NCBI GenBank assembly: GCA_028715785.1
Contig: JAQURC010000001.1
Coordinates: 204,766-268,765, forward strand
From: Candidatus Omnitrophota bacterium
GTDB lineage: Bacteria > Omnitrophota > Gorgyraeia > Gygaellales > Profunditerraquicolaceae
Reading direction: 5' to 3'
Length of the DNA stretch: 64,000 nucleotides
Shown here: positions 5,689-62,885 of the stretch, one piece after another
Numbering within the stretch: the stretch's first letter is position 1
Layout: each line of letters begins with the position of its first letter
The notes under the pieces: model-generated
The model's database searches: none
Seen by the model: the letters and a program-made list of their open reading frames with translations, nothing else
What the model was told of the DNA's origin: nothing
Translations under genes and position numbers: made by a program

Positions 5689-5764
5689 TCCCCCTTAGCT
5701 CAGTTGGTAGAGCGAGAGACTGTTAATCTCCAGGTCCTAGGTTCGAGTCCTAGAGGGGGAGCCA
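5689..5764 (+). tRNA. tRNA-Asn (anticodon GTT)
   Basis: Cloverleaf with acceptor TCCCCCT/AGGGGGA, anticodon loop CUGUUAA, T-loop GTTCGAGTC and an encoded CCA. Confidence 0.9.
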
Positions 5765-10085: not shown

Positions 10086-11423
10086 ATGAAAAAAGACAAA
10101 AAAATAATATTATTAGGACTATCCGCAAAGCGCTTTTTTAGAAAAGTAAGAAGTAGATTAATCAGAAGGATTTATGATGGAGGTAGGGTATCTAAACAAA
10201 AAAGACATAAATATCATATTTCTTCAAGAAAACATTATGCAGAAATAAAAGCTTCAAAACATGGAGGATTAGAATCTATTACAATCAAAATTCCAAAGAA
10301 ATTTTGTTTTATTAAGGATCCCGTTGGTACAAGTAGATTTTTCGAGAGATTAAGAAAAAAATTTCATAAAGGTTTACCTCGCGATATTTTTATAGATCAT
10401 AAATCCACTGAAGAAATTGGCTTAGCTGCCTCTTTTTTATTCGATCAAATCATGAAAGAAGAAGCAAGGTTTTGGGCAGGGAGTAGAATCAAAATAAGGT
10501 TATCCGGAGTGATATCTGACTTTAAGCAAGTCAATAATTTCTTATTATCATTTGGAATTTTGAATGAGTTAGGTATTTCGCATAGGAATTTTGGTAACGA
10601 AAAAGTCGACGTTGACTATGCTGAGAAATATTATACTTTTAAAATGAGCGGTTCGAAAGCGAAACCTCAATTGGCAAGCTTTGCAAGTGTTGGCGTAGTA
10701 GAATATTTTAATACTTGTCTTGAATATAATGGATTCAAAATAGCGGATCCGGCAAGAATTTCACTTGTTGATAGAATGGGAGAGATTATTTGTAACGCAG
10801 AAGAGCACTGTGGGAATGAAAAAGGGGAATGGTTTGCTTTGGGGTGCTACAATAAAGAAACTCATAATTGTAGCTTTGCAATAATTAATTATGGAAAGAC
10901 AATTTATGAGACCTTATCTGATAAAGATTCCACTGCTTCTGATGTAATAGAGAATGTGCAAAAGATTATAGATAGCCATAGACCCTTTTGGCAGAAGATT
11001 TACGGTTTGATGTTTAAGAAAGAGCATGAAGAGCCTACTTGGAGTATTATGGCTCTACAGGATGGCATTAGTTCAAAAAGAACAAATACAGGAAGAGGAC
11101 GAACTAGAGGCCAAGGGATCATGGATGTTTTGAGTTTTATAGAATTGATTAAAGCCGGAAGCAATGGGGCTGAAATTTGCTTGCTATCCGGGCATTCGGC
11201 TGTTAAGATAGATTACAGTTATCCAATAATCGCTAAAGAGGTAGGGTCAGCAAAAGAAAAACGAAGGTTTATTACATTCAATAAGGAAAATGATTTAAAG
11301 ATTCCTCCTGACGGAGATAAGGTATTATTTTTTGACGATAAATTTCAAGGAACAATCTTTACTGGAAGTTTTAAGCTGGACAAAAAATATTTGGAAGAAA
11401 GGTTAAAGCAGGAAAATGGATAA
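10086..11423 (+). CDS. GHKL/histidine-kinase-like ATPase family protein (445 aa); RsbW-like N-box, no histidine kinase dimerisation/H-box seen
   Basis: N-box E-x3-N-A-x2-H in EIICNAEEHCG. Glycine-rich G-box-like segments QDGIS and GRGRTRGQGI. Basic N-terminus. Confidence 0.5.
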   Translation: MKKDKKIILLGLSAKRFFRKVRSRLIRRIYDGGRVSKQKRHKYHISSRKHYAEIKASKHGGLESITIKIPKKFCFIKDPVGTSRFFERLRKKFHKGLPRDIFIDHKSTEEIGLAASFLFDQIMKEEARFWAGSRIKIRLSGVISDFKQVNNFLLSFGILNELGISHRNFGNEKVDVDYAEKYYTFKMSGSKAKPQLASFASVGVVEYFNTCLEYNGFKIADPARISLVDRMGEIICNAEEHCGNEKGEWFALGCYNKETHNCSFAIINYGKTIYETLSDKDSTASDVIENVQKIIDSHRPFWQKIYGLMFKKEHEEPTWSIMALQDGISSKRTNTGRGRTRGQGIMDVLSFIELIKAGSNGAEICLLSGHSAVKIDYSYPIIAKEVGSAKEKRRFITFNKENDLKIPPDGDKVLFFDDKFQGTIFTGSFKLDKKYLEERLKQENG

Positions 11424-11763
11424 GTTAATTAATTTAGCTGATTTTCTCATAGGCAATGAAACTACTTTAGTTGGAAGGGATAATGGGGAAAATGTCTTTG
11501 ATAAGCTTGTTAAGGCAGGCTTAAGTTTCGTTGATCTTGAAAGTAAATTTGATAAAATAATCATTGGTATACCTGATAGAGTAGTCAGCATCAATAAATC
11601 TTTTTTTCTAGGTTTGTTTGAAACCGTCATTGAAAGATTAAAAAAGGGCGGTTTTTATGCAAAATATGATTTTGAAACAAGCGAGCATATTAAAAATAAA
11701 ATTGAAAGTCATGTAGATGCGGCCCTATTAAATGCAAGTCAAAAGGATATCTTAAATGCCTGA
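11416..11763 (+). CDS. small STAS-like protein resembling DUF4325 (115 aa)
   Basis: Pattern L-x-G-R-x-x-G…II-I-G-I-P-D-R-V-V-S-I-N-K-S-F-F-L-G-L-F matches the DUF4325 STAS-like consensus as I recall it. The start overlaps the GHKL gene by 8 nt. Confidence 0.45.
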   Translation: MDKLINLADFLIGNETTLVGRDNGENVFDKLVKAGLSFVDLESKFDKIIIGIPDRVVSINKSFFLGLFETVIERLKKGGFYAKYDFETSEHIKNKIESHVDAALLNASQKDILNA

Positions 11764-31272: not shown

Positions 31273-31306
31273 TACGGTAGGGGAGGTTTAAACCTCCCCT
31301 ACCGTA
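31273..31306 (+). promoter_or_regulatory. perfect 34-nt palindrome upstream of clpC (operator or attenuator hairpin)
   Basis: TACGGTAGGGGAGGTTT|AAACCTCCCCTACCGTA, 28 nt before the clpC start. Confidence 0.4.
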
Positions 31307-45750: not shown

Positions 45751-46512
45751 ATGTTAATTGACACGCATTGCCATCTTGATTTTCCTCCCTTTGACCCGGA
45801 TCGCGACGCGGTTATCCAGCGGGCAAAAGCAATGGGGATCGCTTATTTTATCAATATTGGTTCAACGTTAGAATCTTCAACTGCTTCCTGCGCATTGGCG
45901 CAGAAGTATGGGGAGGTTTATGCCAGTGTGGGAGTGCATCCGCATGATGCCGATACTTTTAACTCGCAGGCAGAGGATAAATTAAAAAGTTTAGCGCAAA
46001 AGAATAAGGTAATTGCCATCGGAGAAACCGGCTTGGATTATTACCGCAACTTATCCAGCCAGGATAATCAAAAACAGGCATTTATCAAACAGATTGAGTT
46101 AGCCAAAGATTTAAAGCTGCCGCTGGTGATCCACTGCCGGCAGGCGGAGAAGGACACACTGCAAATTTTAAAAACCGCGCTGCCGCTTCGGGCAGTGGTG
46201 CACTGTTTTTCCGGCGATGAAAATTTTCTGCGAGAATGTTTAGGCGCAGGATTTTTTATTTCTTTTACTTGCAATATTACTTATAAAAAAGCTCAAGGCC
46301 TACGAGATATGGTTAGGTTGGTTCCGCTTGATCGGTTAATGCTTGAGACTGACGCGCCGTATTTATCGCCGGAAGGTTTCCGGGGAAAACGCAACGAGCC
46401 GCTTCAGATAAAATTACTGGCAGAAGAGGTCAGCCGGCTCAAGGGGGCCAGTTTTGCCGAAATCGCGGAGAAAACTACCCAAAATGCAAAGGAATTCTTT
46501 AAATTACCATGA
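45751..46512 (+). CDS. tatD: TatD family metal-dependent hydrolase
   Basis: N-terminus MLIDTHCHLD and downstream His/Asp metal ligands. Confidence 0.85.
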   Translation: MLIDTHCHLDFPPFDPDRDAVIQRAKAMGIAYFINIGSTLESSTASCALAQKYGEVYASVGVHPHDADTFNSQAEDKLKSLAQKNKVIAIGETGLDYYRNLSSQDNQKQAFIKQIELAKDLKLPLVIHCRQAEKDTLQILKTALPLRAVVHCFSGDENFLRECLGAGFFISFTCNITYKKAQGLRDMVRLVPLDRLMLETDAPYLSPEGFRGKRNEPLQIKLLAEEVSRLKGASFAEIAEKTTQNAKEFFKLP

Positions 46513-47684
46513 GAATAAAAGGGGACGGTTCTATCAGACGGTTTTATGAAGAAGAGAACCGTCCCCTTTATTCTAAAGTTTCCGTGGTTAAATGCGCCGG
46601 TTATGAACCGGCAGGCGTTGAGCTGGCGGTAAGGAATACAGTTAATCTCTTGGGCGGGATTACTAATTTTATTAAACCCGGCTCACGCGTATTGGTCAAG
46701 CCTAATCTTTTGATGTCTAAAGGGCCGGAGTGCGCTATTACCACTCATCCCGAAGTAGTCAGGGCGGTCATTCATATATTAAAGGAAATAAACTGCCAGG
46801 TTATTGCCGGCGACGGCCCGAGCGTCTGGGGTAAGTATATTGAAAATGTGGACCAGGTATATGATCTAACCGGCATAAGAAAAGTTTGCCGGGAGGAGGA
46901 TGTGCGCCTGGTTACTTTTGATAAACGCAGGATGCGCGCAAAATTTCCGCTGACAACCTGGCTTGATGAATGCGATCATTTGATCAGCCTGCCTAAATTT
47001 AAAACCCATGAGTTTACTTTGCTTACCGGAGCAATCAAGAATCTTTTTGGCCTGGTCTCCGGAACTTACAAAACCGAGCTGCATAAGGATTATTTTGAGC
47101 CGCCTGAATTTGCCAAGATCCTGGTGGATATATATCAGGAGGCCAGGCCCGCCCTGACGATTATCGACGGGATATTAGCCATGGAAGGGGATGGCCCGGC
47201 AACCAGCGGAAAACTTCGTGCGCTTGGCCTTTTATTAGGCGGTGCGGATTGCGTGGCTCTGGATACGGTGATGGCCAAAATTATGGGGATTAGCAATCAG
47301 GAGGTTTTAGCGACAAAAGAGGCAGCCCGGCGCGGCTTAGGGGAAAATCAGCTTAGCCGGATCAAGATCGAGGGAGAGGATATTGATAAATTAAATATCC
47401 GGCCGTTTATCCTTCCGGTAAATTCGGTAAAAATAAATAAGCTGCCGCTGGCGGTTAAAAAGATACTTAAAAGCCTGATCAGGTATTATCCTTATTGCCT
47501 GGATCCAAAATGCATCCACTGCGGCCGCTGCGTTAAAGTTTGCCCGCGCCAGTGTATTCGTCTTTCCGCCCGCATTCATTTTGATTATAAAAAATGTATT
47601 GCCTGTTTCTGCTGCCAGGAGAGCTGTCCGGAAGCAGCCATCGGCGTAAAGAAGAGTATCCTGGCTAAAATTATAGGACTATAA
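46509..47684 (+). CDS. DUF362 domain protein with C-terminal 4Fe-4S ferredoxin domain; N-terminus uncertain because a REP hairpin occupies codons 4-20
   Basis: DUF362 consensus begins near SKVSVVKC. Two CxxCxxCxxxCP clusters. Alternative GTG start near 46577. Confidence 0.55.
   Translation: MRIKGDGSIRRFYEEENRPLYSKVSVVKCAGYEPAGVELAVRNTVNLLGGITNFIKPGSRVLVKPNLLMSKGPECAITTHPEVVRAVIHILKEINCQVIAGDGPSVWGKYIENVDQVYDLTGIRKVCREEDVRLVTFDKRRMRAKFPLTTWLDECDHLISLPKFKTHEFTLLTGAIKNLFGLVSGTYKTELHKDYFEPPEFAKILVDIYQEARPALTIIDGILAMEGDGPATSGKLRALGLLLGGADCVALDTVMAKIMGISNQEVLATKEAARRGLGENQLSRIKIEGEDIDKLNIRPFILPVNSVKINKLPLAVKKILKSLIRYYPYCLDPKCIHCGRCVKVCPRQCIRLSARIHFDYKKCIACFCCQESCPEAAIGVKKSILAKIIGL
46521..46566 (+). 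repeat. REP-like palindrome (variant copy)
   Basis: GGGGACGGTTCTATC…AGAACCGTCCCC. Arms identical to the REPs flanking the transposase at 51960. Confidence 0.6.
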
Positions 47685-50752: not shown

Positions 50753-51852
50753 GTTACCGGCCCACCTGGGCAGAGGTCAACCTGAATAATTTAGAACATA
50801 ATTTCAAAGAGGTTAAAGCTCTCCTTGAGCCCCGGACAAAAATCCTGGTTACCGTAAAAGCCGATGCTTACGGCCATGGGTTGGTCCCCGTCGCCAAGAG
50901 ATTGTCCGCCTGCGGCGCGGATTATTTAGGGGTTGCTTCTATTGATGAAGGGATAAAATTAAGAAAGGCAGGCATAAAAACACCCGTCTTGCTCCTTGGC
51001 CTGATCCTGAAAAAAGATATCCGGCCGCTTTTTACCTATTGCTTTACTCCGACGGTTTGCGATCAAGAAATGGCTTCTGCCATTGACACTATGGCCGCTA
51101 AGCTAAAAAAGAAAATAAGCTTACATATAAAAGTGGATACCGGCATGGGCAGGATCGGAGTTTTGCCTGATGGCGCGTTTAAATTAGCCAAAGATATACA
51201 TAAGCTTAAGCACGTCAGGATTGAAGGTATTTTTACGCATTTTGCCTTTGCGGATCTTGACCGCAAGTTTACCGATTATCAAGTCAATTTATTTGAGAAG
51301 CTGGTGGGTGATTTAAAGAAAAGCGGTATCGTTATCCCCCTGGTGCACGCCGCTAACAGCATCGGCTTGATCGACTACAAAGACAGCCATTTTACCATGG
51401 TCAGGCCGGGTCTGGTCATCTATGGCTTGTATCCTAAAGAGCGGCTGCGCATAAAATTAAAACCCGTTTTAAGTTTAAAGACCCGGATTATTTTTATTAA
51501 ACGTGTCCCCGCAGGCACCGGCATAAGTTACGGCCGCACTTATATAACTAAACGGCCAAGCCGCATTGTTACTTTGCCTATTGGTTACGGCGACGGTTAT
51601 CCGCGCAACCTTTCCAATTTAGCCTGGCTTTTGATCGGAGGCAGGAGATTCCGCGTCGCCGGCCGGATTTGTATGGATCAGATCATGGTTGATATCGGCA
51701 ATTTCAGGCCGAAGGTCGGCGATGAAGTTGTCTTAATCGGAGAGCAGGGCAGGCAGAAAATTACCGTTGAAGAGCTTGCTGAATTATCCGGCACCATTCC
51801 TTATGAGATTGTCTGCGGTTTAGGCAGCCGCATCCCCCGAATTTATAAATAA
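50731..51852 (+). CDS. alr: alanine racemase
   Basis: PLP-binding lysine motif VTVKADAYGHG. Confidence 0.85.
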   Translation: MPDKDKIGYRPTWAEVNLNNLEHNFKEVKALLEPRTKILVTVKADAYGHGLVPVAKRLSACGADYLGVASIDEGIKLRKAGIKTPVLLLGLILKKDIRPLFTYCFTPTVCDQEMASAIDTMAAKLKKKISLHIKVDTGMGRIGVLPDGAFKLAKDIHKLKHVRIEGIFTHFAFADLDRKFTDYQVNLFEKLVGDLKKSGIVIPLVHAANSIGLIDYKDSHFTMVRPGLVIYGLYPKERLRIKLKPVLSLKTRIIFIKRVPAGTGISYGRTYITKRPSRIVTLPIGYGDGYPRNLSNLAWLLIGGRRFRVAGRICMDQIMVDIGNFRPKVGDEVVLIGEQGRQKITVEELAELSGTIPYEIVCGLGSRIPRIYK

Positions 51853-51853
51853 A

Positions 51854-51899
51854 GGGGACGGTTCTATCTTTCAAAAAAACGCTTGATAGAACCGTCCCC
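51854..51899 (+). repeat. REP palindrome (left flank of the transposase)
   Basis: GGGGACGGTTCTATCTTTCAAAAAAACGCTTGATAGAACCGTCCCC, a perfect 15-bp stem. Confidence 0.7.
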
Positions 51900-51959
51900 T
51901 CTTTATTTTAGTTAGATTCTCTCTTCTTTTGCGTCAATTGTAGTAAAAGGAGGGTTTTT

Positions 51960-52514
51960 ATGCCTAGGGCTAAACGGATAATTCCAGAAAATTCGGCTTT
52001 ACATGTTATCAGTAGGGGCAACAACCAAAATATTATATTCCATAGTGATAATGATAAACTACGCTACTATACGCTATTACGAAGCCTAAAAGAGGAGAAT
52101 AAAATCGATATTTTTCATTATTGCTTGATGAATACCCATATTCATATCATTTTAAATCTTAATCCAGATAGTGCTTTATCAAGATTCATGAAGCAGTTAA
52201 ATTTGACTTACTTTCATTATTACCGAAAAAAGTATGGTTATTTTGGCCATTTTTGGCAGGACAGATTTAAGAGTAATATTATCGATACGGATTCGTACCT
52301 GTTGCAATGTGGTAAATATATTGAACTTAATCCTGTCCGCGCAGGTATGGTGAATTACCCAGGAGAGTATTCATTTTCGAGTTATAATTATTATGCCAAT
52401 AATAAACCGGATGAGCTTATTACTTTAAGCCCGGCATATCTTGGATTATCAGATTCTGCTAAAATAAGACAAGAGCAATATGTTAATTTTGTGGTTGATA
52501 GCAATATAATATAA
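51960..52514 (+). CDS. REP-associated tyrosine transposase (IS200/IS605-like Y1 HuH transposase)
   Basis: HuH motif NTHIHII and C-terminal YIELNPVRAGMV, typical of these transposases. Flanked by identical REPs. Confidence 0.8.
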   Translation: MPRAKRIIPENSALHVISRGNNQNIIFHSDNDKLRYYTLLRSLKEENKIDIFHYCLMNTHIHIILNLNPDSALSRFMKQLNLTYFHYYRKKYGYFGHFWQDRFKSNIIDTDSYLLQCGKYIELNPVRAGMVNYPGEYSFSSYNYYANNKPDELITLSPAYLGLSDSAKIRQEQYVNFVVDSNII

Positions 52515-52520
52515 AATCTA

Positions 52521-52566
52521 GGGGACGGTTCTATCTTTCAAAAAAACGCTTGATAGAACCGTCCCC
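52521..52566 (+). repeat. REP palindrome (right flank of the transposase), identical to 51854-51899
   Basis: Same 46-nt sequence in direct orientation. Confidence 0.7.
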
Positions 52567-55494: not shown

Positions 55495-55570
55495 AAAGAT
55501 ATAATAACAATGAAAACCGGCTTTGTCAAAGTAATTGACAGCCGGCTGTATCGAGAGTAGAATTATTGTC

Positions 55571-57384: not shown

Positions 57385-57410
57385 AGTTATATTTACGGGT
57401 GACGAGACTT

Positions 57411-57553
57411 GATTCGAGCAGCATCTCAAAAATTTGAGCGGGCATGGTTGCCCACAATAAATGTTTCGGCAGAGCGAAAATTTTTGCCGAAGCGCAGCGA
57501 GCCACGCTGGGGCGAGCAAGCGGTGCTGCGAGAACAAGGCTCGGCAGGACCCG
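57411..57553 (+). repeat. structured intergenic repeat, copy C
   Basis: Left half matches copy A almost exactly. Middle matches copy B. Confidence 0.6.
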
Positions 57554-57565
57554 TAAATAATATAT

Positions 57566-58915
57566 ATGATGAGCAAAATTTACTTAGCCTCTAAATCCAA
57601 AGCCAGGAAGAAGCTGTTAGAGAAATTCGGCCTGAAGTTTAAAGTCCTTTCCTCTAAAATTAAAGAGAATGACCGGCGCGGAAATTTATCCTACGCGCAA
57701 TTAGTTAAAAATAACGCGCGCGACAAGGCCAGAGAAGTTGCCGGCAGGGTAAAAGAGGGTATTATTATTGCCGCCGATACGATCTGCGTGCAGGATGGGA
57801 AAATATTCGGCAAGCCCAAAAACATACGCGTTGCCCGGATTATGCTTAAGAAATTATCGAGTGCGCCGCAATGGCTTTATACCGGCCTGGCAGTTATAAA
57901 AAAAGATAAGGGCAAAGATCGAATCGCCATTGACTATGAGAAAACAAAAGTTTATATGGATCAATTAAGCGATAGAGAGATCAATAATTATTTCAAGCAG
58001 GTTTCTCCTTTGGATAAAGCGGGGAGTTTTGACATTCAAGGCAAGGGGGCATTTTTTATCAAGAAGATAGACGGTTGTTTCTATAATGTCGTCGGCCTGC
58101 CTTTGCGGAAACTTTATCGTATTTTTCAGAAACTGGGGGTGTTGTCTTTAATTTGTTTTGCCTGGGCGCTCTCCGGCTGTTCCACCGAGTATAATCTTGC
58201 CACCAAACAGGAGGAAAAATATTACTACAGCACGGATAAGGAAGTAGCTATGGGCCAGGCGATCAACCGCCAGGTGGAGAAGGAATTAAAATTTTCCAAC
58301 GACCCTTTACAGAAGAAACGCGTAGAGGATATCGGCAAAAAAATAGCCGCGGTAAGCGACAGGAAAGAGATCGATTACTATTTTCAGGTTTTGGATGATG
58401 ATACGGTAAATGCCGTTTCTTTGCCCGGAGGCTATGTCTATGTCAACAGCGGATTATTGGATAAGGTTTCCAGCGATGATGAACTGGCCTGCGTTTTGGC
58501 GCACGAGGTAGGCCATATCGTCGCCCGGCACAGTATCAAAAAACTCCAGGCAATGCAAAGTTATTCCATATTAAGATTGTTAGTGGCTGTAACTCCTGCT
58601 CCCGGAACAGGGGAAGTAGGCTCTGCCGCGGATGCCGCTTTTTTGCAATTTCTTCTGGGTTACAGCCGCGAGGATGAGCTGCTGGCGGACCAATTGGGTG
58701 CCCGCTACGCTAAATTGGCAGGTTATGACCCGCACGGCATGATCACTTTTCTGACCAGGCTGCAGGATATAAACCGCAGGATGCCGCTTAAGGAGCGTTC
58801 CTATTTTAAAACCCACCCCTATGTGCCTGACAGGATCAGGGTAGTTAAGCAGGAACTGGGGGAGCAAATCAGCTTCGGGGATTATATCAACATTGAACAA
58901 GAAACTCACAAATAA
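57566..58915 (+). CDS. maf: Maf nucleotide pyrophosphatase (residues 1-191) joined in frame to a lipoprotein M48 zinc peptidase (from GTG 58139)
   Basis: Maf N-terminus IYLASKSKARKKLL. Then signal peptide VLSLICFAWALSGC and the HEVGHIVARH motif. No stop codon lies between them. Confidence 0.6.
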   Translation: MMSKIYLASKSKARKKLLEKFGLKFKVLSSKIKENDRRGNLSYAQLVKNNARDKAREVAGRVKEGIIIAADTICVQDGKIFGKPKNIRVARIMLKKLSSAPQWLYTGLAVIKKDKGKDRIAIDYEKTKVYMDQLSDREINNYFKQVSPLDKAGSFDIQGKGAFFIKKIDGCFYNVVGLPLRKLYRIFQKLGVLSLICFAWALSGCSTEYNLATKQEEKYYYSTDKEVAMGQAINRQVEKELKFSNDPLQKKRVEDIGKKIAAVSDRKEIDYYFQVLDDDTVNAVSLPGGYVYVNSGLLDKVSSDDELACVLAHEVGHIVARHSIKKLQAMQSYSILRLLVAVTPAPGTGEVGSAADAAFLQFLLGYSREDELLADQLGARYAKLAGYDPHGMITFLTRLQDINRRMPLKERSYFKTHPYVPDRIRVVKQELGEQISFGDYINIEQETHK

Positions 58916-60851: not shown

Positions 60852-60935
60852 ATGGTGCGGGAGGAGGGAGTTGAACCCTCAAGGGTTGCCCCACACGCTT
60901 CTGAGACGTGCGCGTCTGCCATTCCGCCACCCCCG
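60852..60935 (-). tRNA. tRNA-Leu (anticodon CAG), type II with long variable arm
   Basis: Acceptor GCGGGGG, anticodon loop CUCAGAA, long variable arm and an encoded CCA. Confidence 0.85.
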
Positions 60936-61060
60936 CAAAAATCAGATTAAGTATATCTTAGCGCAATACTCCTGTCAATTAGTTATCAATTCCGGTTATA
61001 AATGAATTGCGGCAAGGATTTTTTGCTGTTATAATAATAATTTACTAAAGAGGAGAAATA

Positions 61061-62474: not shown

Positions 62475-62885
62475 GGGGGTGAAAGGGTTCGACTTAAGAT
62501 ATGTCGGATAAAAGCAGCATGCCGCGGACGCATGGTTAGCCGCGTTAATAACCCGTGCACAATATAAACGCAAACACAAACACGCAAGTGTTCAATCGCT
62601 TAGCGCCAAAAACAGCAATGTTTTTAGCGCCTGTAGCGGGCGTACCAGCCTTCGGACTTCATTAAGTCCGAAGCCTCTAACCGTCTACGCCTACGGGACG
62701 GATTAGGGCCTTAGTAGGATAGCTCCGGTGGTTGCCTTTGAAGCCGGAGCGAAATTTAAAAGGCTGCTCCTTGCAAATCCTGCCATGTAGAAGTTGCAAG
62801 GTTAAGATAAATTACAAGGCTAAGCATGTAGCGGCTTTTATTTGATTACTTAAGGACGGCGGTCCGATTCCGCCCACCTCCACCA
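62475..62885 (+). ncRNA. ssrA: transfer-messenger RNA (tmRNA)
   Basis: 5' GGGGGTGAAAGGGTTCGAC pairs with the 3' CACCTCC-A-CCA end, including a G3:U wobble. T-arm GGCGGTCCGATTCCGCC. Lies directly after smpB. Confidence 0.85.

Follow-up and report, generated by a model that had tools for sequence, protein, structure and literature searches.

What kind of gene lies between two identical 46-nt palindromes in a genome of Candidatus Omnitrophota, and what are these palindromes to it? The stretch that we analysed, hereafter the window, comprises 64,000 nt of contig JAQURC010000001.1. In it, an open reading frame (ORF) of 184 amino acids (aa), of the Y1/HUH type, is placed between the genes alr and lptG with one palindrome on each side. 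A sequence-only reading had named the ORF a repetitive extragenic palindromic (REP)-associated tyrosine transposase (RAYT), and the palindrome the REP of this genome. We find instead that the locus is a TIRtron/TIRYT locus, and neither a canonical REPtron nor an IS200/IS605 element. The ORF probably belongs to the TIRYT family, equivalent to TnpA_Y1 subclass 2.1 and to RAYT Group 1, as a member inherited vertically and truncated at its C-terminus, its palindromes being doublets of the terminal inverted repeat (TIR) of that family.

The 46-nt sequence, GGGGACGGTTCTATCTTTCAAAAAAACGCTTGATAGAACCGTCCCC, occurs in two mismatch-free copies on the plus strand, palindromes A and B (Table 1); no such pair is expected from 100 shuffles. 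Each copy forms a perfect 15-bp stem with a 16-nt loop (17 bp in the second copy, counting a flanking TA), with single-stranded DNA folding energies of -19.7 and -20.6 kcal/mol (z = -6.7 and -8.5). The identity between A and B ends precisely at the outer limits of the cores, at the outer G and C runs, and the flanks are dissimilar. Palindrome C, lying within the 5' part of the DUF362 ORF, shares their 12-nt arms (15 nt with AAA/TTT), which enclose a 22-nt spacer of another sequence. All of this agrees with the sequence-only reading, and no further hairpin-pairing copy with up to two mismatches exists in the 64-kb window. Palindrome A begins 2 nt past the alr stop codon (51850-51852) and is lengthened to approximately 51847-51907 by a weaker outer palindrome, AAATAAA/TTTATTT. 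Palindrome B is placed between the stop of the Y1 gene (52514) and the convergent stop of lptG (52576).

Table 1 Coordinates of the features of the window.
Feature	Position	Strand	Description
Palindrome A	51854-51899		left core GGGGACGGTTCT, 22-nt spacer, right core AGAACCGTCCCC
Leader between core and ATG	51900-51959	+	TTTTAGTTAGATTC...ACGTCAATTGTAGTAAAAGGAGG; Shine-Dalgarno AAGGAGG at 51947-51953
Y1/HUH protein of TIRYT type, 184 aa	51960-52514	+	H60-I-H62, W99-Q100, Y120-IELNP, S140-S141
Palindrome B	52521-52566		46/46 identical to A, same orientation
Palindrome C	46514-46572		with AATAAAA/TTTATT flanks; hairpin proper 46521-46566
Empty site AGTAATTG|ACAGCC	55530-55545		filled in relative L122 by a 61-nt palindrome that shares the core
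tmRNA gene	62475-62885		175.8 bits
tRNA gene	5689-5761
tRNA gene	60856-60936

The ORF carries the motifs NTHIHII and YIELNPVRAGMV, as already noted from the letters. A strong Shine-Dalgarno sequence ends 6 nt ahead of its ATG, and the leader is conserved over eight loci (alignment A3) whose proteins are 59-87% identical to that of the window; the promoter scan called no strong or clear sigma-70 promoter for the ORF on the plus strand. Pfam Y1_Tnp (PF01797) matches residues 12-122 with 60.8 bits, against a cutoff of 23. The HUH and tyrosine residues, whose absence on alignment the sequence-only reading had named as grounds for giving up its claim, are all in place: H60/H62 and Y120 are invariant in alignments A1 (13 sequences) and A2 (48 sequences). 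So are N124 and Q100/R102, while P125 is invariant in the first and nearly so in the second. In an AlphaFold model of the protein (predicted local distance difference test score, pLDDT, 80.5), the fold is most similar to the E. coli TnpA_REP/REP complex (4er8, PMC3479197). This structure is the top match of Foldseek in the PDB (4er8_A, E = 4.6e-8, template modelling scores 0.66/0.72), with the TnpA structures of IS608, IS200 and ISDra2 ranking behind. Y120 aligns with Y115 of E. coli TnpA_REP, and HIH with its HMH.

Within this fold, the sequence of the protein points to the TIRYTs. Its best NCBIfam match is the RAYT equivalog NF047646, with 63.3 bits, below the cutoff of 80; the IS200 profile NF033573 gives 24.6 bits against a cutoff of 55, and the motif is YIELNP instead of Y---Q. 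We compared the protein by blastp with reference sequences taken from the supplement of Di Nocera et al. 2013 (PMC3733652). Eight TIRYTs score 95-130 bits, with 31-41% identity over roughly 140-180 residues, whereas three RAYTs score 35-48 bits, with 24-28% identity over shorter stretches. Alignment to reference RAYTs, the check that had been proposed, recovers the catalytic residues of 4er8 but places the protein closer to the TIRYTs.

TnpA_Y1 subclass 2.1 is defined by the motifs NHVH, W[EQ] and YIELNP, an SS extension, a median length of 238 aa and C-terminal helix-turn-helix (HTH)-like domains (Quentin et al. 2018, PMC6006769; Table 1 therein for motifs). The same study equates it with Group 1 of Bertels et al. 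2017 (PMC5581495), and probably also with the TIRYTs of Di Nocera et al. 2013. The window protein contains N-T-H-I-H (N-N-H-V-H in most relatives), FWQ, YIELNP and FSSY, and shares with the subclass a low copy number and a wide taxonomic spread. For subclass 2.1, Quentin et al. 2018 (PMC6006769) describe no REP-like sequence, and the 16-mers beside Group 1 genes number only some 12 copies in Bertels et al. 2017 (PMC5581495). In the present case, by contrast, a TIR core forms hairpin-folding doublets, found both beside the gene and at dispersed sites. At 184 aa, the window protein also falls short of the median length.

This difference in length lies at the C-terminus. A 225-aa relative, P0018, aligns with TIRYTs end to end, the tail ...G..F...RGRPxK included. 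The window protein ends at residue 184 and has no tail of about 40 aa (...IGSxxF...RGRPxK) as found in 225-aa relatives; its closest relatives (185-194 aa) are likewise without it, and Bacillota relatives of 249-258 aa give weak HTH matches. We read the missing C-terminal extension as truncation of a member, not as exclusion from the family. Close relatives with a source name are labelled 'transposase' and belong mostly to Candidatus Omnitrophota; the family as a whole counts 27,599 clusters at 50% identity (E <= 1e-3). The RGRPxK tail, which we take to resemble an AT-hook, may bind A/T-rich flanks, and its loss in the clade of the window may accompany immobilisation of the gene.

Could the locus still be a canonical REP/RAYT system, with a genome-specific REP family and its dedicated RAYT? 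The class-2 Y---NP motif, the 4er8-like fold, the match to NF047646, the single copy, vertical inheritance and the flanking palindromes all speak for it. The resemblance to REPIN-RAYT systems (Bertels & Rainey 2011, PMC3116915) is real: in both, a single-copy, vertically inherited Y1 gene is bracketed by cognate palindromes, and the apparent mobile unit is a pair of inverted recognition sequences, separated by a short spacer, that forms one long hairpin and is polymorphic at orthologous sites. We nevertheless consider such a system unlikely here. The protein is far nearer TIRYTs than RAYTs and scores below the NCBIfam RAYT cutoff, and the GT[AG]G foot is absent: neither palindrome foot has GTAG or GTGG, the preceding letters being AAATAAA, AATCTA or AATAAAA. 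Canonical REPs number tens to hundreds per genome, and within the 64 kb covered here the copy number is low, at three. Moreover, the core is near-invariant across many phyla instead of lineage-specific, and the ancestral layout consists of single TIRs, not REP hairpins, as detailed below. What stands of the first assignment is a RAYT-like Y1/HUH enzyme with cognate flanking palindromes.

From the IS200/IS605 transposases (IS608 and ISDra2 TnpA), with which it shares the HUH/Y1 fold and presumably the single-strand cut-and-rejoin chemistry, the window protein differs in having Y---NP in place of Y---Q. Its gene is single-copy and syntenic, without tnpB, and has inverted-repeat ends, whereas those elements end in dissimilar subterminal hairpins on one strand.

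TIRYT genes are flanked by TIRs with the consensus motif GGGGWSAS (Di Nocera, De Gregorio & Rocco 2013, PMC3733652), to which the block GGGGACGG corresponds here at 7/8 positions. Our survey of the flanks took in 83 loci centred on the gene, of which a metagenome scan supplied 80, with 33-100% protein identity. Both cores, with at most one mismatch, are present in 35 loci, down to about 37% protein identity, and one of the two in 11 loci; by our own estimate, the core arises by chance at a rate of about 7e-4 per 300 nt. The left core precedes the ATG by 31-170 nt and the right core lies at -1 to +65 nt relative to the stop; this polarity is constant throughout the survey. Loci devoid of the standard core have inverted repeats with the variant cores GGGGTCAGGTCT, GGGGACAGATCT, GGGGACAC and GGGACCGTTTCT, which fit GGGGWSAS. 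The 12-nt core is itself a variant of this published motif.

In full-length, 225-aa genes found in unrelated contexts (L123 and L124/L125), one GGGGACGGTTCT is located about 67-70 nt upstream of the ATG and one AGAACCGTCCCC touches or overlaps the stop codon, each set in AATAAA...ATTTATT. The gene therefore lies between inverted single cores, and the ancestral layout is a 225-aa gene with one core per side. The palindromes of the window are, in turn, doublets of left core, spacer and right core, and therefore resemble REPINs or miniature inverted-repeat transposable elements (MITEs). The 22-nt spacers of the doublets form one repeat family, with both orientations occurring. On inspection, we saw no obvious similarity between the doublet spacer and the inner ends of the full-length element, so that an origin by internal deletion, as for a MITE, is unsupported.

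The locus thus has in common with the described TIRtrons a Y1/HUH protein with the TIRYT signature, a gene flanked by TIRs, and full-length relatives with a GRPxK tail; in both, TIRs are also dispersed as moderately abundant repeats, often as dimers. It differs from them in its Omnitrophota host, in the TIR doublets that flank the window gene instead of single TIRs, in the loss of the C-terminal tail, and in a conserved block of 12 nt (GGGGACGGTTCT) whose exact string a search of the literature did not return.

The core survey also bears on another account of the palindromes, in which they are common intrinsic terminators or hairpins at mRNA ends, have no link to the Y1 gene and are alike by coincidence or convergence. 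All three directly follow stop codons (of alr, tatD and Y1/lptG), with T-rich tracts thereafter on one or both strands. However, the same 12-mer flanks the gene at fixed polarity in 46 of the 83 relative loci, where single cores cannot form terminators; the spacers belong to a 22-nt repeat family, and insertions are found in a coding region and upstream of a promoter-like sequence. We hold coincidence or convergence to be highly improbable. As a secondary role, and judging from their post-stop position and T-rich tails, the palindromes probably act as transcript-end hairpins; Rfam gives no match at any of them.

How long has the gene been at this site? The order metG-tatD-DUF362-mtnA-thiL-tsaE-tsaB-alr-Y1-lptG-lptF is common to the window and two metagenomic relatives, L121 and L122, whose housekeeping proteins are 72-95% identical to those of the window, with synonymous sites near saturation. 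The Y1 proteins are 82-87% identical among the three, and the ratio of nonsynonymous to synonymous divergence (dN/dS) is 0.088-0.092 in all three pairwise comparisons. Given a dN/dS of 0.09 across three diverged genomes, selection has therefore retained the truncated gene at a single place in the chromosome. This leaves little room for a decaying, truncated pseudogene without present function, which we regard as scarcely credible: although about 40 C-terminal residues are lost and the L122 ORF runs into the downstream palindrome, the selective constraint holds in every pair, the catalytic and family-invariant residues are all retained and the Shine-Dalgarno sequence is strong.

The same evidence weighs on the idea that a mobile TIRtron, an autonomous insertion sequence still active, arrived between alr and lptG only recently. 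In its favour, Group 1 is the most insertion sequence (IS)-like of the RAYT groups. Relatives 75-79% identical (L123, L124), bounded by single inverted cores, lie in unrelated contexts, beside a serine recombinase/restriction-modification island and beside an RHS toxin gene. In addition, a 24-kb Pseudomonas aeruginosa plasmid (NZ_CP116719.1) has three places that match the Y1 protein at 36% identity, an IS-like multi-copy arrangement. For the window gene itself it is very unlikely: the same locus is occupied in three genomes with saturated housekeeping synonymous divergence, both original single TIRs and the 3' 40 codons are lost, and the window has a single copy, next to alr and lptG and without tnpB. 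Relatives of the gene occur on just 24 of 72,556 plasmid records.

Two side observations concern the history of the gene in the three genomes. Its dS between the window and L121 is 0.77, below every neighbouring gene (1.2-2.7 or saturated). The neighbours pair L121 with L122 as closest, and the Y1 identities do not. Past conversion or exchange, or constraint at the nucleotide level, may lie behind both.

If the preferred reading, a resident TIRYT with TIR doublets, is correct, what has happened to the doublets at orthologous sites? All three genomes have the post-alr palindrome, its core identical and its spacer differing (window:51854-51899, L121:9891-9936, L122:9892-9937). The spacer of the window is flipped relative to both others, with 14/22 identity when flipped and 3-4/22 when read directly; either the loop was turned by recombination between the arms, or the whole unit was replaced. 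The palindrome 3' of Y1 is orthologous in the window and L122, where the ORF ends inside it: B has outer flanks, AAAATCTA/TAGATTT, whose orthologues surround the ORF-truncating palindrome of L122. In L121 it has decayed to a half-site (AGGGATGGTTCT at 10560). Core-to-core identity of the two flanking 46-nt palindromes, with differing outer flanks, is found in the window only, and points to recent copying or conversion bounded by the cores. We also observe in L121 (10559-11480) a 260-aa SHOCT-domain gene between the half-palindrome and a degenerate palindrome (11434-11479), where the window has palindrome B alone; a gene has thus come or gone between palindromes.

Two sites show the doublet as an insertion. 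At palindrome C, a 59-nt block stands in place of 2 nt, a net 57 nt or 19 codons in-frame, just past the start codon of DUF362, whose overlap with the stop of tatD reads ATGA. In L121 the tatD/DUF362 junction is uninterrupted (ACCATGAGCACTAAAGTT), with an intact ATGA overlap and a DUF362 protein of 373 aa, while L122 has a longer insertion (about 85 nt) with ATGAG on either side, the DUF362 start being recreated downstream. The second site is empty in the window and filled in L122 (Table 1), just upstream of a promoter-like TTGACA-N17-TAGAAT, read by eye. In total, L122 has five palindromes in 18.5 kb and the window three in 64 kb.

The insertion at C raises the question of where DUF362 begins. 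The hairpin had been assigned to codons 4-20, with a possible true start at a GTG near 46577; in fact it occupies codons 5-20, and the only in-frame downstream start is a GTG at 46584-46586, which has no Shine-Dalgarno sequence and would drop conserved residues. DUF362 orthologues start at the ATG overlapping the tatD stop, which in the window is at 46509, with MSTKVS... or MSAKIS..., and the alignment to the NCBIfam DUF362 profile begins at residue 23 of the window ORF. Of the two options first offered, a tolerated REP-encoded N-terminus or a downstream start, the comparison of homologues favours the former: translation of the 19 extra residues, and tolerance of them, is more likely than use of the GTG.

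Another intergenic difference was seen at 57385-57570, where in the window an inverted repeat, ATTTACGGGT...ACCCGTAAAT, encloses a block of some 190 nt and L122 has only 62 nt with a core palindrome. Rfam has no match for the block, which may be another small element or a structured RNA.

How far does the palindrome reach beyond Omnitrophota? A pattern scan for core-spacer-core, with one genome per species, returned at least 120 loci (L001-L120) with at least 136 hairpins, where by our own estimate about 0.06 hits would arise by chance. The matches listed come from Bacillota (most of them), Bacteroidota, Actinomycetota, Omnitrophota, Elusimicrobiota, Aminicenantes, a metagenome-assembled genome of Planctomycetales and a deltaproteobacterium. 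Because an identical core occurs in so many phyla, the palindrome is not a private REP of the Omnitrophota source genome, as had been claimed; it is the TIR core of the family, and a genome-specific REP is ruled out. Oribacterium (L063) shows the same arrangement: palindromes built on this core stand on both sides of a homologue with about 37-39% identity, and five of them occur in 8 kb. We also rejected a place in the 'CGTC-tagged REP' superfamily, suggested by the CGTC within the core; in those elements the CGTC tag is terminal, stems of 8-9 bp carry loops of 4-5 nt, and there is no transposase associated with them.

Several stretches of 8 kb, in Oribacterium, Rossellomorea, Muribaculaceae and Coprococcus, contain the GGGGACGGTTCT...AGAACCGTCCCC palindrome in multiple copies, with lineage-specific spacers and outer stems (for example L063:21-6429, L026:4679-7721, L022:7125-7909 and L065:3031-6953). 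A literature search found no description of this multi-copy core-spacer-core repeat, and a full-text search for the core string returned chance primer matches alone. In Oribacterium, the longest ORF upstream of the Y1 homologue (L063:59-892, minus strand) crosses a palindrome (...TGDGSRRREPSPV...); either a palindrome again occupies the 5' part of a coding sequence, or the ORF has been called too long.

The core is frequently bracketed by a short, lineage-specific inverted repeat, an arrangement that we write X-core-X'. Among the matches listed it is seen in 50 of 116 hairpins, where about 5 are expected (for example L012:3787-3850, L003:3160-3225 and L173:4900-4960). From their letters, such arms could each fold as a small hairpin with the core as its loop, and one single TIR of this kind does fold alone (L173, -9.8 kcal/mol, z = -3.6). 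Core conservation amid varying stems suggests that the core is read by the protein itself. Going further, GGGGACGGTTCT may be a near-invariant recognition or nick site of subclass 2.1 enzymes, often shown as the loop of a lineage-specific stem, as for the origins of HUH Rep proteins. The doublets would then form one REPIN-like miniature family in at least eight phylum-level groups, those named above with the Planctomycetales genome counted under Planctomycetota. This broader proposal we offer tentatively, and lean somewhat against it.

By which mechanism could these units move? IS608 TnpA and E. coli TnpA_REP act on folded single-stranded DNA, which they cut and rejoin. By analogy, we infer that the enzyme would recognise the core in folded single-stranded DNA, for instance in the lagging-strand template, and that Tyr120, with a metal held by H60/H62, would cut and rejoin the DNA where the core begins or ends. 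Segments bounded by cores, be it the unit with the gene or the miniature doublets, would thereby be moved or copied. Such activity would account for the presence/absence polymorphism, for the spacer flips at orthologous sites and for the core-to-core homogenisation of A and B.

Several points weigh against this account and the reading that underlies it. The literature searched contains no biochemical study of a subclass 2.1 member, so that cleavage at the core rests on analogy. The identity of A and B could come from nearby gene conversion without any enzyme. The window protein, as the tail of full-length members is absent from it, may have lost DNA targeting. The AT-rich single cores of Omnitrophota do not self-fold (L124, 0 kcal/mol), and the window contains three palindromes only. 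Lastly, a promoter/terminator scan called none of the three as terminators; their loops exceed the 8-nt limit of the scan.

Apart from the core family, the window also contains a perfect, loopless 34-nt palindrome at 31273-31306 (TACGGTAGGGGAGGTTT/AAACCTCCCCTACCGTA), unrelated to it, together with the tmRNA and tRNA genes of Table 1.

Subclass 2.1 (Group 1, TIRYT) is the largest RAYT-like group, known so far by a short TIR consensus. To this picture we add an Omnitrophota host; the 12-nt extent of the core, its fixed polarity and its constancy across phyla; hairpin-forming doublets with a conserved spacer; and a truncated, syntenic form under selection. The locus and its relatives supply a defined 12-nt core of fixed polarity relative to the gene, and a natural series, with a unit of mobile appearance (single TIRs, 225 aa) at one end and, at the other, a truncated gene that is fixed, flanked by doublets and under purifying selection. 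They also supply clean filled and empty sites, and all three together make biochemical and evolutionary tests straightforward. For annotation, the N-terminus of DUF362 contains a 19-codon palindrome insertion, and 'transposase' calls of the Y1/TIRYT type in Omnitrophota are probably resident host genes, not active IS copies. If the universal reading of the core is true, it would contradict the published absence of a REP-like partner for subclass 2.1, and the largest and least understood RAYT group would become testable with a single universal substrate.

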